Shown: one piece after another, positions 46,175-51,140 of the stretch
How the letters are laid out: every line of letters begins with the position of its first letter
Position numbering within the stretch: the first letter of the stretch is position 1
Source: a bacterium
Lineage (GTDB): Bacteria > Patescibacteriota > CPR2 > UBA1875 > CAIMLA01
Direction: 5' to 3'
DNA length: 64,000 nt
Assembly (NCBI GenBank): GCA_037129835.1
Contig: JBAXUE010000004.1
Location: forward strand, 25,638 to 89,637
Notes under the pieces: generated by a model
What the model was told of the DNA's origin: nothing
What the model saw: the letters and a program-made list of their open reading frames with translations, nothing else
Databases searched by the model: none
Made by a program: the position numbers and the translations under genes

Positions 46175-46660
46175 TTACTCCTTTTCCTTATCATGACTTC
46201 GTAAATCTATCATAATCATAACCTGATCCCCTTTTCTTAGTTCTGAAAGTGCTTCAGGAATACTTGGAGAAATCGATTCTGTAGAGAAACGATGCTCTAC
46301 CATAGCCAGGACTTTTTCACTACCTACTTGCATTTGAATAAACTTTACCTCATATCCTCTTTCTCTTATCTTAGATACTTCCTGGAGAAACTCGTCAAAG
46401 ATTACGCTTCCGTTCCCCATTCCTTCAAAAGCTGACCTAACCTCAATGTACGACAAGTGTAAAATACAGGTAGCGGGATTATAGTTTGCCTTATACTTTC
46501 CTACCCGCTCACGATAAACATTCTTAATATCTTCACTCCCATCGAAATTTGGATGTAAGGATCTGCGAAAATCGTTATCCAAGAATTCAGCCTTGCTAAC
46601 GTCTATGTAGCCGCTTTCAATAGCTTCACCAAAATTATCTCGAACGTCCTCTGGACACAT
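46175..46660 (-). CDS. Hypothetical protein (161 aa), first gene of the leader-ORF-ileS unit
   Basis: Open frame whose stop (TAA) lies inside the ileS Shine-Dalgarno sequence (AAGGAGTAAgtATG). No family recognised. Confidence 0.4.
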   Translation of the reverse strand: MCPEDVRDNFGEAIESGYIDVSKAEFLDNDFRRSLHPNFDGSEDIKNVYRERVGKYKANYNPATCILHLSYIEVRSAFEGMGNGSVIFDEFLQEVSKIRERGYEVKFIQMQVGSEKVLAMVEHRFSTESISPSIPEALSELRKGDQVMIMIDLRSHDKEKE

Positions 46661-46930
46661 AGAATTTATGAGAACATCTTCAGTACTTTCAGCGTCAATT
46701 GGTACGTGTCTTTCTATTATAACTACTCCTAAATAACAAATACCACACCTGCTCAGGAGCCCTCTCGGACGGTACCATCCTGATTTCAGCGTGTGGAATA
46801 CTTACTTTTCTGCTATTACGGGCTTACCCGTCGGGTTCTAATTGCTATATGCTTTCTTCCCGAAACTCACGGTTGATAGCCGCGTGGAACGTCTTTAGTG
46901 AATTATAACTTGATTATTAACTTTTTTCAA
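46661..46930 (-). promoter_or_regulatory. Sigma70-type promoter plus T-box-like riboswitch leader
   Basis: Minus strand: TTGAAA-17 nt-TATAAT (comp. 46925-46930 / 46902-46907). In the transcript, AGGAUGGUACCG (comp. 46770-46781) matches the T-box consensus AGGGUGGNACCG with one mismatch. It folds as CAGGA[UGGUACC]GUCC-GAGA-GGGC-UCCUG, an antiterminator-type helix with a 7-nt bulge (comp. 46753-46783). The outer helix CCACAC...GUGUGG is followed by UAUUUGUUAUUU (comp. 46731-46742). No ORF is present. Confidence 0.5.
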
Positions 46931-49430
46931 CCGCTTCTGGTGGCAAAATATCTGCACCGATAATTACTTTTTGTCCAGTAACAATACCACCTTCAAGTAT
47001 TTTTCTGGCCACAGAATTCTCAATCATATCCTGAAAAACTCTTCTAATTTCTCTGGCACCAAACTCTGGTTTATAGCCAGCTTCGGCGACTGCCGTTAGA
47101 AGATCTTGATCAAAGTCTATGTCAAAGCCTTGTTCAAGAAGCTTCTTATGTAATTTATCAAAAAATATTTTTGCTATTTGAACAACTTCTTCCTGATTAA
47201 GAGATCTAAAAAGAATAATATCATCGAACCTATTTAAGAACTCAGGTTTAAATAAATTATTATTTTGCAAGAATTCTAGTACTTGTTCTTTTTCTTTAGA
47301 AATATCTTTACCTTCTGCACAGATAGTTCTAATTAGATTAGCCCCAGCATTTGAAGTTGCAATAATAATATTGTTTTTAAACAATATTTTTTCACCCATT
47401 CCATCTGTGATATAACCCTCGTCAAGAAGTTGCAAAAATAAATTAAGAATATCTGGATGCGCTTTTTCTATTTCATCTAATAAAACAACGGAGAAGGGCA
47501 TCTGCCTTGCTTTCTTAACAAATTCACCGCCGTCGAGTTCTTGCTGACCTACAATTTTTTTACCAATAAAACGATCTAGTCCGGAAGTATCTTGGAATTG
47601 ATTCATGTCCATTCTTACCATTTTGTTTTCATCTCCAAAATATGTCGCTGCCAAAGCTTTTGATAGTTCAGTCTTACCTACACCTGTCGGCCCTACGAAT
47701 AAGAAACTTCCCATTGGTCTCTTACTATCACCGACATTTGTTCTAGCCCTTCTTAGCGAATTCGAAACAGCCACTACAGCTTCTTCTTGACCGATTACTC
47801 TCTGATGAATTGTCTTTTCAAGGTTTAAAAGCTTAACCTTCTCAACCTCATCGGCCTCTCTAATAGGTATATTAAAAATTTCTTCAGCTATTTCGTCGAC
47901 AAATTTCTTTGTAACAAATTTGATACCCTTATTCTTTGCGGCGTTAGAAATACTGTTCAATAAATCTATTGCTCTTCCTGGAAAATCCTTAGGAACCGAT
48001 TGGCTTTCTGAAATCTGATAAATTTCCTTTAAGGAATCATAGGTGATTGATTGTCCCTTGACTGCAGCCAAATATATACTTATATCTTCCATAGATTGAA
48101 TTGTTTCATTTTTATTTGTTGGTTCTACTTGTATCACAGAAAGCTTCGAAGCGATCCCACCTTTGGGCTGTATATATGTAGAATAGCTTGCCTGGTCTGT
48201 GGCTGCAATTAATTTAAAATCTGATCTTTCAAGATATTTATTCAATACGTCAGAAGCATCGATTGAAGAGATTGTTTCATTACCCTTTAAAAATACTTCA
48301 AAATTATCAATAAATAAAATAATATTCCCCGCTCTTACAGTATCGTTAAACGATGCTGTTAAATTCTCTAACAATTCTTGAGGAGATGCGCTTGAAGACA
48401 TCATAACCTGAGCATCAAGTGCCACTATTCTTTTATACATTAAAGCTGGCATCACTTTACCCCAATATATATTTGCTGCCAGCTCCTTTACTATTGTACG
48501 TTTTCCGACACCTGCCCTACCAAGCAATATACAACTATTACTACTATCTCCTGTTAAAACATTTTGTAATTGCTCTAGTAAATGTTCTCTAGATTTTATA
48601 CTGATACCATTAAAACTATTTGGCACTGTATAATCGACACCGAACCTGTCAAGAGTAAGAGTATATCCAGAAGACCAGTTTTGAGCAAAGCCACCGTTAG
48701 AAACTAATAATTTTTCAGAAATAGTTTTAGGCCTAGAAAATTTTGAAAATAGATTTTTGCTCCAAGAAATAATATTGACCAAGTCTTCTTCATTAAGATC
48801 TATGGACATTAAAAATTCTTGTATTGCAGGATTCTGTTTCAATAAAACATAAAATAAGTCAGCCTTTGTAATGTAATTTACTGCAGGTTCTTTGAGGGCC
48901 TGTTCGAGCATTAAACTAAAAATATTCAAACCATCAACGGCTCCAAAATTAATTAATTTATTTATCGTTATCTTGTCTCCTGCTACTCCCATCTTACTAA
49001 GAATAAACATAATTTCGTTTGATTTGGAGAACAATTTAGCCAAACCAGTAAAATTATTTTTTAAAAGATATTCATCCATAATATAAATCGTATCAAAATC
49101 GCAAAGAGTATAAATCTCATCAATACTTGTAACGCTCTCGGGTAATTTAATTTTATCTTCATTCTCGACAAAATAATGTCGTACGAATGTTAAAAAGTAA
49201 TATATAGAAAGACCAAAAAATATAGATATATTCAATACGTAATTAGGTATAATCTTCGCTACTTGTCCAAGAGCTGTAAATTGAAATAATTTTATAAATA
49301 TAGCAAGTCCGCCCAAAACAATTAGTAATCTTAAAATTTTGTCCAAAAGACGATACTTCTTGAACTTAAAATAAAAAGCAGCAGATAGGGCTGTTTCTCT
49401 AATTTTGTGATCTGCCTGAACCATCATACT
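46917..49430 (-). CDS. ClpB/ClpC-like double AAA+ protein with N-terminal transmembrane segments and a degenerate first nucleotide-binding domain
   Basis: D2 is canonical (GPTGVGKT; LLDEIEKAH). D1 has GRAGVGKRT and ILFIDNFE in place of Walker A and Walker B. The N-terminal ~100 aa are hydrophobic. The track ORF extends to 49487, but the ATGATG at ~49430 overlaps the upstream ORF stop (ATGA). Confidence 0.7.
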   Translation of the reverse strand, partial: SMMVQADHKIRETALSAAFYFKFKKYRLLDKILRLLIVLGGLAIFIKLFQFTALGQVAKIIPNYVLNISIFFGLSIYYFLTFVRHYFVENEDKIKLPESVTSIDEIYTLCDFDTIYIMDEYLLKNNFTGLAKLFSKSNEIMFILSKMGVAGDKITINKLINFGAVDGLNIFSLMLEQALKEPAVNYITKADLFYVLLKQNPAIQEFLMSIDLNEEDLVNIISWSKNLFSKFSRPKTISEKLLVSNGGFAQNWSSGYTLTLDRFGVDYTVPNSFNGISIKSREHLLEQLQNVLTGDSSNSCILLGRAGVGKRTIVKELAANIYWGKVMPALMYKRIVALDAQVMMSSSASPQELLENLTASFNDTVRAGNIILFIDNFEVFLKGNETISSIDASDVLNKYLERSDFKLIAATDQASYSTYIQPKGGIASKLSVIQVEPTNKNETIQSMEDISIYLAAVKGQSITYDSLKEIYQISESQSVPKDFPGRAIDLLNSISNAAKNKGIKFVTKKFVDEIAEEIFNIPIREADEVEKVKLLNLEKTIHQRVIGQEEAVVAVSNSLRRARTNVGDSKRPMGSFLFVGPTGVGKTELSKALAATYFGDENKMVRMDMNQFQDTSGLDRFIGKKIVGQQELDGGEFVKKARQMPFSVVLLDEIEKAHPDILNLFLQLLDEGYITDGMGEKILFKNNIIIATSNAGANLIRTICAEGKDISKEKEQVLEFLQNNNLFKPEFLNRFDDIILFRSLNQEEVVQIAKIFFDKLHKKLLEQGFDIDFDQDLLTAVAEAGYKPEFGAREIRRVFQDMIENSVARKILEGGIVTGQKVIIGADILPPEAVEKS

Positions 49431-49804
49431 ATTTCCCAAAAAATATTGATAAAAGCCAAAACAACTAAGGCTGGTAGAAAAGCCCATGCAATAATTAAAA
49501 ATATTGAGAAAATAATGTAAGAAATTAAACTCAAAATATAGGCTAGTATTAAAAGAGTTCTAACCACGAAACCGACACCTCTAGAAATTAAGTTATCGAA
49601 AAACCAATCCCTAAAGGCATATATTCCTTTGCCTCGACTCATTGCCATTCTTTTCCATGGGGAAAACAAAGTTTTTATAATAACAATGATCGAAAAATTA
49701 TTATTTAAATTTGAAAATAATGCTTTTAGAAAATATAATAAATCACTGGGGGCTTTTGAATACCACCAGAAAAATGAATATGGGAAAAAATATAATACTT
49801 CCAT
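49424..49804 (-). CDS. Small polytopic membrane protein translationally coupled to the ClpB-like gene
   Basis: 126-aa hydrophobic ORF whose stop overlaps the downstream start. Confidence 0.35.
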   Translation of the reverse strand: MEVLYFFPYSFFWWYSKAPSDLLYFLKALFSNLNNNFSIIVIIKTLFSPWKRMAMSRGKGIYAFRDWFFDNLISRGVGFVVRTLLILAYILSLISYIIFSIFLIIAWAFLPALVVLAFINIFWEIV

Positions 49805-49829
49805 AACTTATATATATAATAATAAATAA

Positions 49830-51140
49830 ATGAGTAATATGCCAACAGAAAATTTTGTAACGATCGAAAAAATTATCCCAGAAGGAAGATCTTTGGGTCA
49901 CATTGAAGGTAAATCAGTATTGATTTGGGGTGGACTACCTGAAGAAAAAGTAATTGTGGATGTATATAAAAACAAAAAAAGTTTTTCAGAAGCACGTCTA
50001 ATTAGGGTTGTCGAACCATCTCCGATTAGAATAAAAGAACGCGAAAATCATTACCTGATATGCTCTCCATGGCAAGTGCTTCCATATAATTCTCAAGTTG
50101 CTATAAAAAAATCGCTACTAAAACAAGCCTTCTTAGATATTTGTGATTATAATATTACTGATATAAATTTTTGTGAATCGACCACAGAATATGGTTATCG
50201 AACAAAACTTGAATTTAGTTTTACGGTCGACAAAACCGGAAAAATAGCTCTTGCCTTCCACAAAAGAGGCGTAAATAATGAATATGAAATTATAAAGGGC
50301 TGCTTACTCGGGTCTGATAAAATGAACCTTGCTGCCAGAAAAATAACCGCTGAATTAAACAAGGATTCCAATATCAATTACAAGGGGTTAAAGAGTCTGG
50401 TTATACGAGAGAGCAAAACCAATAATCAAATTATCGCCATATTGTATTATAAATTTAAGGAATTTAAATTTAATATCAGGCTGTCTGATCTCGGTGGTAT
50501 TGTTGACGGTCTATATATAGCTTATTCAAGCATTAAATCCCCCATTTCAGTTATTACAGAACTTATATATTCTGAAGGGATAAATTATCTCGAAGAAGAT
50601 ATCTTAAACTTAAAGATCAGATACCCTTTCGACGGCTTTTTCCAAAACAATATACCTTTATTCGAAAAAACATTAACGGAAATTATAGCGAGTACACCAA
50701 AATGCAACAGGATAGTTGAGCTATATAGCGGCGTTGGTTCTATAGGATTAGCTCTTTGCGACAAAGCAAAAGAAGTGATGGGGCTAGAGATTGTCGACTC
50801 GGCAGTCGAATATTCTGAGATAAACAAGAATGTAAACAAAATTAACAACTACAAAGCCATAGCGCTTGCAGACTATAAAATTACTTTAAATATACTAGAA
50901 GAAGTTGATGTTTTAGTTTTAGACCCACCAAGGTCAGGACTACACCCTAAAACAACTAAGCTAATAATCGACACTAAACCTAAAAAGATAATATACCTGT
51001 CCTGTAACCCTAGCACTCAGGCGAGGGATTATAAAATCTTAAGTCAGGAATACAAGATAGAAAAAATCACTGGGTACGATTACTATCCTAACACATTCCA
51101 TATGGAATCTTTGTTGGTTCTGGTCCCGATAGAGAAATAG
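49830..51140 (+). CDS. rlmD: 23S rRNA (uracil-C5)-methyltransferase RlmD/RumA family
   Basis: N-terminal TRAM-like region, a SAM-MTase fold with VLDPPRSGL, and a C-terminal catalytic Cys region. Confidence 0.7.
   Translation: MSNMPTENFVTIEKIIPEGRSLGHIEGKSVLIWGGLPEEKVIVDVYKNKKSFSEARLIRVVEPSPIRIKERENHYLICSPWQVLPYNSQVAIKKSLLKQAFLDICDYNITDINFCESTTEYGYRTKLEFSFTVDKTGKIALAFHKRGVNNEYEIIKGCLLGSDKMNLAARKITAELNKDSNINYKGLKSLVIRESKTNNQIIAILYYKFKEFKFNIRLSDLGGIVDGLYIAYSSIKSPISVITELIYSEGINYLEEDILNLKIRYPFDGFFQNNIPLFEKTLTEIIASTPKCNRIVELYSGVGSIGLALCDKAKEVMGLEIVDSAVEYSEINKNVNKINNYKAIALADYKITLNILEEVDVLVLDPPRSGLHPKTTKLIIDTKPKKIIYLSCNPSTQARDYKILSQEYKIEKITGYDYYPNTFHMESLLVLVPIEK

Follow-up and report, generated by a model that had tools for sequence, protein, structure and literature searches.

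What can an Hsp100 ring do without threading, and what would it do when tied to a membrane? In the textbook picture, Clp/Hsp100 proteins are soluble motors that work by threading, and the tyrosines of their pore loops are regarded as essential. The question is raised by a two-gene locus in a 64,000-nucleotide stretch of DNA from a Patescibacteria genome (contig JBAXUE010000004.1, positions 25,638 to 89,637; hereafter the window, meaning the whole stretch), in which a gene for a 126-residue membrane protein overlaps the start of a gene for a double-AAA+ ATPase with N-terminal transmembrane (TM) helices. An earlier note, made from the sequence alone, had described the ATPase as a membrane-anchored ClpB-like unfoldase with a dead first nucleotide-binding domain (NBD1, here D1) and a canonical second one (NBD2, here D2). 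Both open reading frames (ORFs) were recovered on the minus strand (Table 1), and our analysis confirms that the observation is real and that its details are more unusual than the note had seen. By sequence comparison, the locus is a two-gene, translationally coupled membrane module characteristic of Patescibacteria, the candidate phyla radiation (CPR). ATP hydrolysis by D2 in a ring appears to be under strong selection, as its trans-acting arginine finger is kept, and the elements for threading, ClpP docking and DnaK coupling have been lost.

Domain architecture of the ATPase

Domain assignment showed the ATPase to be built, in predicted order, of a TM hairpin, a divergent Clp_N domain, a degenerate D1, a catalytically intact D2 and a D2-small domain (residues are numbered on the 836-residue form that starts at 49427). 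Pfam, alignment to ClpC and Foldseek agree on the two-NBD Hsp100 layout that the note had proposed. Pfam assigns AAA_2 to residues 570-737 (6.9e-47) and ClpB_D2-small to residues 743-823 (6.1e-21), which together with the preceding AAA+ module gives the tandem arrangement of class I Clp/Hsp100 proteins; the N-terminal Clp_N domain of that class was found by profile-profile comparison. D1 yields weak generic P-loop matches only in Pfam and aligns with residues 153-423 of Bacillus subtilis ClpC. For the soluble part of the protein, Foldseek places ClpC and ClpB on top (E 1e-47 to 1e-37).

The alignment to B. subtilis ClpC places the two substituted motifs of D1, GRAGVGKRT and DNFE, at the Walker A and Walker B positions, as had been claimed, so that GKT reads GKR and DE reads DN. 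The suggestion that D1 is a pseudo-ATPase is thereby supported, and the erosion goes further than the note had it: the arginine fingers (ALERRFQ in ClpC, GIASKLS in the window) and the pore-loop tyrosine with its KYR motif (AGTKYRGEFE in ClpC, SSSASPQELLE in the window) are also gone. Motif positions were assigned from the established reference residues, ClpB Y251, Y653, R331/R332 and R756 and the IGL/VGF/IGF loop of ClpA, ClpC and ClpX.

D2 is canonical in one respect and not in another. Its Walker A, Walker B, sensor-1, arginine finger (LNRFD) and sensor-2 (GAR) motifs are intact relative to B. subtilis ClpC, but the pore loop PPGYVGYDEGG of ClpC is replaced by KKIVGQQELDGG, with Ile in place of Tyr, and in most relatives the GYVGY loop is deleted. 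The term unfoldase is thus hard to uphold, since classical threading becomes doubtful. Nor does the label ClpB-like fit, as the protein has no M-domain and its two Walker A motifs lie 276 residues apart, against about 400 in ClpB. The ClpP-docking KYVGF segment of ClpC is represented by CAEGKDISK (within TICAEGKDISK).

Conservation across the family

Homologue statistics refer to the best 120 homologues of the window ATPase. Motif conservation was scored over a family set of 140 proteins, made up of the TM-bearing homologues among those 120 and 41 full-length genes from species-representative genomes, with 21 canonical ClpB/C/E-type proteins in the same alignment as controls. Wherever a source is named, the TM-bearing homologues come from Patescibacteria.

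Each catalytic position of D2 (Walker A K and T, Walker B D and E, sensor-1 N, arginine finger R and sensor-2 R) is kept in 140/140 family members and 21/21 controls. In D1, the Walker A Lys is retained by 70 of the 140, a Walker A Thr or Ser by 23 and GK[ST] together with DE by only 8, whereas all 21 controls have each of these. Where D1 aligns with the second Arg of ERRF, the seven residues found most often in the family do not include Arg (the window has K), and RR is kept by P0094 alone among the TM-family members listed. The pore loops are eroded to a similar extent: no aromatic residue is present in the D1 pore-loop region of 117 family members or in the D2 pore loop of 128 (0/21 controls in both cases), and the D2 loop measures 8-10 residues in 118 members against 14 in every control. 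The ClpP-docking motif [ILVM]G[FL] occurs in 0/140 family members and 16/21 controls. The distance between the two Walker A motifs is 263-293 residues in the family and 276-402 in the controls, two ClpB-type proteins accounting for 396-402.

Almost half of the family (65/140, for example P0009, P0012, P0015, P0017 and P0020-P0033) has R at the position of the D1 Walker A Lys, followed by K and then S or G (GxxGxGRKS). This pattern appears to be a conserved alternative P-loop rather than random decay, and D1 may therefore retain a non-catalytic nucleotide-binding role or a structural one in that branch.

On these comparisons the TM-Clp architecture is common in Patescibacteria and not a one-off. 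The note's word unusual holds with respect to characterised Clp proteins; within Patescibacteria, membership of a common family makes the window finding less singular than first thought.

Membrane anchor and N-terminal domain

Membrane anchoring, also proposed in the note, is supported by hydropathy and structure prediction. Kyte-Doolittle windows give hydrophobic helices at about residues 26-54 and 64-82, and the AlphaFold2 model (predicted local distance difference test, pLDDT, 88.3; predicted template modelling score 0.86; 73-sequence alignment) has helices at 26-48 and 62-91. The K/R counts of six before the first TM helix, one in the loop and three after the second fit a predicted N-in/C-in hairpin with both ends in the cytoplasm. 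About 99 of the best 120 homologues are proteins of 750-950 residues with N-terminal hydrophobic helices, down to about 25-30% identity, which excludes a downstream true start that would remove the TM region.

The hairpin was said to stand instead of a Clp N-domain. It is instead followed by one: residues 88-262 of the family profile match canonical Clp N-domains with an hhalign probability of 97.4% (E 1.3e-11). Pfam does not detect Clp_N in the window ATPase, and PF02861 is recorded for several TM-bearing homologues. Given the profile match, the hairpin was added before a divergent Clp_N domain and did not take its place.

The small partner protein

The small protein has a predicted cytoplasmic N-terminal part of about 75 residues, carrying W13, FS (37-38), LFSPW (46-50) followed by KR, and NLISR (71-75) followed by G78 and R82, and a C-terminal hydrophobic hairpin (residues 76-126), seen in hydropathy as a 52-residue hydrophobic stretch. 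Invariant in the family are W13, F37, L46, S48-P49-W50, N71, I73-S74-R75, G78, R82, W107 and P111. AlphaFold2 models the protein as all-helical (pLDDT 88), and a fold search of this model against the PDB gave no match below E = 1.

No Pfam, NCBIfam or PADLOC model matches the small protein, and Pfam on 23 family members returned noise only (E > 0.01). Its homologues are 119-136 residues long. A profile search over 1.84 billion representatives (clusters at 50% identity) gave 1,473 matches at E<=1e-3 and 1,107 at E<=1e-10, mostly of about 120-135 residues with a few of about 640-825. On profile similarity, the small ORF founds a large family that has no Pfam model.

Linkage of the partner to the ATPase

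The earlier note asked whether the small protein is conserved with the ATPase across genomes, and it is. For a synteny scan we used a pattern taken from the small-protein alignment and one genome per species, which gave 52 loci, one labelled an Acidobacteriota metagenome-assembled genome and the other 51 Patescibacteria or unclassified bacterium. The ATPase gene is adjacent in 44 loci, fused in one and within 1 kb in three, that is, 48/48 informative loci, the remaining four being uninformative since they end at a contig edge. In three of three further loci, reached through partner homologues of 30-37% identity, the stop/start overlap is kept and the flanking genes differ. Clustering of all ORFs from 55 loci revealed no other universal neighbour of the pair. 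The window pair has the features that define the module, namely a small protein with SPW and NLISR motifs directly upstream of, or fused to, a TM-Clp protein with a degenerate D1.

About 20 of the 120 ATPase homologues also match the hidden Markov model of the small family at their N-termini (E 1e-12 to 1e-29). In these fusions the partner domain replaces the hairpin that the ATPase otherwise has, and the two fused loci examined have no separate small gene upstream. Such proteins constitute a Rosetta-stone fusion of partner and ATPase. As the partner is joined to the N-terminus of the ATPase, its own C-terminus must be cytoplasmic, and its conserved N-terminal 75 residues consequently face the ATPase. 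A common origin of the two hairpins was considered and rejected, there being no detectable homology between them (hhalign probability 0.4%).

The Acidobacteriota-labelled locus (L034, JBLMYW010000081.1) holds a complete module; its label is most likely due to a binning contaminant, and horizontal transfer is possible. In the Saccharibacteria-type module, a 55-residue Cys-rich, non-hydrophobic ORF lies between the small and AAA+ genes with 4-nt overlaps on both sides, and may be a third component in that lineage. A membrane protein of about 112 residues is encoded immediately upstream of the small gene in 14/55 loci (e.g. L024 3467-3826). Downstream of the AAA+ gene, 14 loci of the set L006-L057 have MraZ and the dcw cluster, and in 20 a methyltransferase-like ORF lies upstream. 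Lineage inertia could account for these three kinds of neighbour, as could a loose link to the division/cell-wall cluster.

Locus layout and genomic surroundings

The ATGA overlap noted earlier was confirmed, and it suggests translational coupling of the small protein and the ATPase. At the junction, GTATGATGG, two ATGs lie at the TGA of the small ORF, one at 49427 (ATGA overlap) and one at 49424 (abutting). The database protein P0001 (835 residues), identical to the window ATPase, starts at the second, and the longest possible AAA+ ORF begins upstream, at 49487. Genetic code 25, with UGA read as Gly, was rejected because code 11 gives long ORFs and lets the small protein end where its homologues end.

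Table 1 Coordinates of the features described (window numbering; last row, numbering of the two loci named)
Feature	Coordinates	Strand	Basis or remark
Small partner gene, 126 aa	49424..49804	minus	ORF list
Membrane-anchored Clp/Hsp100-type double-AAA+ gene, 836 aa + stop	46917..49427	minus	ORF, Pfam/NCBIfam, ClpC alignment, AlphaFold2
ATGA stop/start overlap of small and AAA+ genes	49424..49427	minus	junction sequence
Second in-frame ATG of AAA+ gene	49424-49422	minus	
Promoter-like site TTGGCA-18-TATTAT	49816..49845	minus	upstream of small gene; consensus match only
SPWKR motif of small protein (S48, P49, W50 invariant)	49649..49663	minus	family alignment
NLISR motif of small protein (N71, I73, S74, R75 invariant), directly before hairpin	49580..49594	minus	family alignment
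K/R-rich N-terminal helix, then TM hairpin (aa 1-92)	49152..49427	minus	hydropathy, homologues, AlphaFold2
Divergent Clp_N-like domain (aa ~108-222)	48762..49106	minus	hhalign
D1 (NBD1), putative pseudo-ATPase module	47913..48596	minus	alignment to ClpC, family alignment
D1 Walker A GRAGVGKRT (aa 303-311)	48495-48521	minus	aligns with GEPGVGKT of B. subtilis ClpC
D1 pore-loop region MMSSSASPQELLE, without KYR	48366-48404	minus	
D1 Walker B IILFIDNFEV (IDNFE, aa 373-377)	48294-48323	minus	aligns with IDELH of ClpC
D1 arginine-finger region GIASKLSVI, without RR	48132-48158	minus	
D2 (NBD2), predicted active ATPase module, with D2-small	46959..47810	minus	Pfam; catalytic positions invariant in family
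D2 Walker A GPTGVGKTE	47667-47693	minus	
D2 pore-loop region IGKKIVGQQELDGG (KKIVGQ), Ile for canonical GYVG Tyr	47526..47567	minus	
D2 Walker B VVLLDEIEKAH	47457-47489	minus	
D2 sensor-1 TSN	47343-47366	minus	
D2 arginine finger within PEFLNRFD	47223-47246	minus	
D2 sensor-2 GAR	47040-47063	minus	
55-aa Cys-rich ORF	L002 6357-6524; L003 394-561		

The TTGGCA-18-TATTAT site is a possible operon promoter, and no convincing terminator-like site lies between the two genes. Only 25 bp (49805-49829) separate the start of the small gene (49804, minus) from that of a divergent tRNA (U5) methyltransferase-like gene (49830, plus), so each of the two divergent promoters must sit within the opposite gene. 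The G+C content around the locus is about 31-37%.

The neighbours in the window are housekeeping genes (IleRS and GlmS, both by sequence, FtsW, NrdD/NrdG-like, FtsZ, YggT and the tRNA methyltransferase), together with some ORFs of no assigned family; FtsW lies three genes downstream of the AAA+ gene. Between the AAA+ gene and IleRS, a 161-residue ORF (46175-46660, minus), which stops 2 nt short of the IleRS start, gave no Pfam, NCBIfam or PADLOC match. Upstream of it, at the 3' end of the AAA+ gene, is a strong promoter-like site, TTGAAA-17-TATAAT (46930-46902, 11/12). Rfam and tRNA scans found nothing within or beside the locus. The sole Rfam match of the window at gathering score is a ribosomal protein L10 leader (RF00557, 13693-13853, minus, 51.8 bits), and no tRNA gene was detected in the 64 kb.

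A likely counterpart in Southlakia epibionticum

Published transposon-sequencing (Tn-seq) data on Southlakia epibionticum, a cultivated Saccharibacterium (Tables S1/S2; PMC10633639), include a pair resembling the module. The hypothetical gene SEML1_0701, of 384 nt, overlaps the 2583-nt gene SEML1_0700, annotated 'AAA family ATPase', whose product has AAA_2 (544-706) and ClpB_D2-small (713-792) but no Clp_N match; both genes are called NE, NE and GD at three time points, a late growth deficit (PMC10633639). The same genome has a canonical ClpC (SEML1_0512) and ClpP (SEML1_0493), both called non-essential (NE) (PMC10633639). On the basis of size, Pfam positions and the overlapping upstream ORF of 127 residues, SEML1_0700 and SEML1_0701 are likely orthologues of the ATPase and its partner. 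SEML1_0512 was rejected as the orthologue, being a canonical ClpC with two Clp_N and a UVR domain. If the orthology holds, the module is an extra paralogue and not the cell's only Hsp100, its two genes behave as a unit, and the pair is dispensable but adds to fitness in co-culture.

Proposed function and alternatives

The reading we favour, with a probability of roughly 0.55, is that the ATPase is a D2-driven remodeller at the membrane face and not a classical threading unfoldase. Both proteins would have N-in/C-in hairpins, which would put every conserved partner motif, and the ATPase in full, on the cytoplasmic side. The ATPase would assemble into a ring, because its trans-acting D2 arginine finger and sensor-2 are invariant, and the face formed by the N-domain and D1 would be held at the membrane by as many as 24 TM helices, provided that the ring is hexameric and each subunit has one partner. 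D1 would act as a non-hydrolysing scaffold, as in other type-II AAA+ proteins with one structural ring, and D2 would be the only motor. ATP hydrolysis by D2 would most likely remodel or release one or more membrane-associated clients, which the Clp_N domain and the cytoplasmic part of the partner would bind, and the small protein would be an obligate co-anchor or adaptor. Since the M-domain, the [ILV]G[FL] docking loop and the aromatic pore loops are missing, the ATPase should be neither a DnaK-coupled disaggregase nor a ClpP partner, and it is probably not a processive threading unfoldase of the Tyr-paddle kind.

Closest to the earlier note is the proposal of a membrane-tethered threading unfoldase with one live ring, which would extract or unfold membrane proteins in the service of quality control, in the manner of FtsH, Msp1 or PEX1/6, without a protease of its own. 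Because the TM hairpin is N-terminal, the entry face made of the N-domain and D1 must face the membrane, which suits such a role, as do the strict conservation of the D2 ATPase site and the retained Clp_N domain. The window subclade (P0001-P0005) moreover keeps a full-length D2 loop with I/L-V/P-G. The difficulty lies in the pore loops, which lack an aromatic residue in D1 and D2 and are shortened in D2 across most of the family (117, 128 and 118 of 140), whereas ClpB and Hsp104 require these tyrosines for translocation; even within the window subclade no one residue is fixed at the Tyr position (I, L, I, L, Q). We consider extraction by threading doubtful for the family as a whole and a live rival all the same, particularly for the window's own subclade. 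Several points weigh against a D2-driven remodeller. The full-length D2 loop with I/L or Gln in the window protein and its four closest relatives makes some grip on a polypeptide by this subclade conceivable. The TM helices of the ATPase are assigned from two kinds of prediction, hydropathy and AlphaFold2; the ring, the 24-helix estimate, the topology and the interaction with the partner are drawn from sequence, fusion and synteny; and the Southlakia pair was matched by annotation, not by sequence.

In a different arrangement, ATP-dependent assembly and disassembly of the D2 ring would regulate the partner, for example as a channel, gate or scaffold built from the partner's helices, and no polypeptide would be handled. 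Torsins offer a precedent, being Clp-related, membrane-located, devoid of aromatic loops and served by TM cofactors (PMC5425593), and the module likewise has an obligate TM partner and a degenerate AAA+ module, D1, in cis. Such a switch is nonetheless improbable, as D2 has a canonical Walker A and an arginine finger of its own, a Clp_N domain of the substrate- or adaptor-binding type is retained, and the partner has no AAA-like fold. The database annotation, an ATP-binding Clp protease subunit that delivers substrates to ClpP, agrees with a layout colinear with ClpA and with the presence of ClpP in at least one Patescibacterium. We judge it very improbable: the docking tripeptide is absent from the entire family, the scores fall far under the ClpA, ClpB and ClpV equivalog cut-offs, and the pore loops are missing. 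Hardly credible, finally, is an artefact, either a soluble protein made from a downstream start or a decaying Clp paralogue. The degenerate D1 alone speaks for decay, against an ORF that is intact and coupled to its partner, D2 catalytic residues invariant in all 140 members and N-terminal helices in most of the homologues.

A bolder and distinctly speculative reading is that of a non-threading, Hsp100-derived bacterial membrane device specific to CPR, in which one live D2 ring, its pore loops deleted, would drive a membrane-embedded collar formed by the hairpins of the ATPase and the partner, with as many as 24 helices. If true, it would be, for instance, a gate, a lipid/protein handling station or a complex-disassembly factor; its mechanism would resemble that of Torsin more than that of the known bacterial Clp proteins, and it would add to fitness in the epibiotic lifestyle.

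Whatever its mechanism, the family is large and occurs in nature throughout a radiation to which a substantial part of bacterial diversity belongs. All ATPase residues of D2 have been kept, while the tyrosine loops of both rings are gone, as are the active site of D1, the M-domain and the ClpP loop; new are the membrane anchor and the small membrane protein as an obligate partner. Nature thus provides in this family a test of what such a ring is capable of without threading, and the membrane biology of Patescibacteria, for the most part uncharacterised, gains a two-gene module that can be tested. In the full-text literature searched, on Patescibacteria Clp/Hsp100 proteins, membrane-anchored Clp/Hsp100 proteins and the Southlakia Tn-seq work, a description of the family was not found.

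Comparison with known systems

By the defining features of ClpB, ClpA/C and ClpV, the window ATPase falls outside all three. It is nearest to ClpA and ClpC, with which it shares the succession Clp_N, D1, D2, D2-small; its best matches in the PDB, by sequence and by fold, are to ClpC, and the NCBIfam ClpA model aligns with it in one stretch (residues 180-823), with a ClpA-like D1-D2 spacing and no long M-domain. It differs from both in its N-terminal TM hairpin and obligate small membrane partner, in the missing ClpP-docking [ILV]G[FL] loop in the last AAA+ module, in a D1 left without Walker A Thr, catalytic Glu, arginine fingers or KYR loop, and in a D2 tyrosine loop that is lost or replaced across the family. 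Its scores are about one third of the equivalog cut-offs or less for ClpA (345.5 bits against 993 for TIGR02639; 244 against 1350 for PRK11034).

D2 is nearest to ClpB by NCBIfam score (410 bits over D2), and both proteins lack the ClpP loop. The ClpB equivalog cut-offs are nevertheless far off (410 bits against 1232 for TIGR03346; 364 against 1417 for PRK10865). Unlike ClpB and Hsp104, the window ATPase has no M-domain coiled coil, hence no DnaK coupling site, the Walker A spacing being 276 rather than about 400 residues; it has SSASPQ in D1 and KKIVGQ in D2 where ClpB has KYR and GYVG, its D1 is probably dead, and it is membrane-anchored. For ClpV/TssH, the score is 314 bits against a cut-off of 885, and the scanned neighbours are housekeeping genes and ORFs without a family, with no type VI secretion system context. 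A defence system is unsupported as well: PADLOC gave generic AAA_2-type similarity (DolB, PDC-M37B) for the ATPase and nothing for the partner.

With FtsH, Msp1/ATAD1 and PEX1/PEX6, the module would share the tethering of a ring to the cytoplasmic membrane face by N-terminal TM helices or a small TM partner. PEX1/PEX6 (with PEX15/26) also combines an inactive D1 ring with an active D2 ring, as the window ATPase probably does. These known motors, however, keep aromatic pore loops and thread their substrates, and none has a sequence relationship to the window ATPase beyond the AAA+ fold. FtsH bears an M41 protease domain; the window ATPase has no Peptidase_M41 match and two AAA+ modules, so that only the N-terminal two-TM anchoring is common to the two.

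A further parallel lies in the metazoan endoplasmic reticulum and nuclear envelope. Torsins are Clp/Hsp100-related and membrane-associated, lack aromatic pore loops and work with TM cofactors that have degenerate AAA+ folds (PMC5425593). The Torsin-LAP1/LULL1 system thus resembles the window family in being a Clp-related membrane AAA+ protein without aromatic loops (in most members of the family), with a TM partner and a degenerate AAA+ module. Torsin, however, has one AAA+ module, with a GKN Walker A and no arginine finger of its own, and its cofactor supplies the degenerate AAA fold in trans. In the window family it is D1 that provides the degenerate module, in cis, the partner is small and helical, and D2 has canonical ATPase motifs with its own arginine finger, invariant in 140/140. 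The resemblance is best taken as an analogy and not as specific homology; the family may represent a bacterial counterpart to the Torsin problem.

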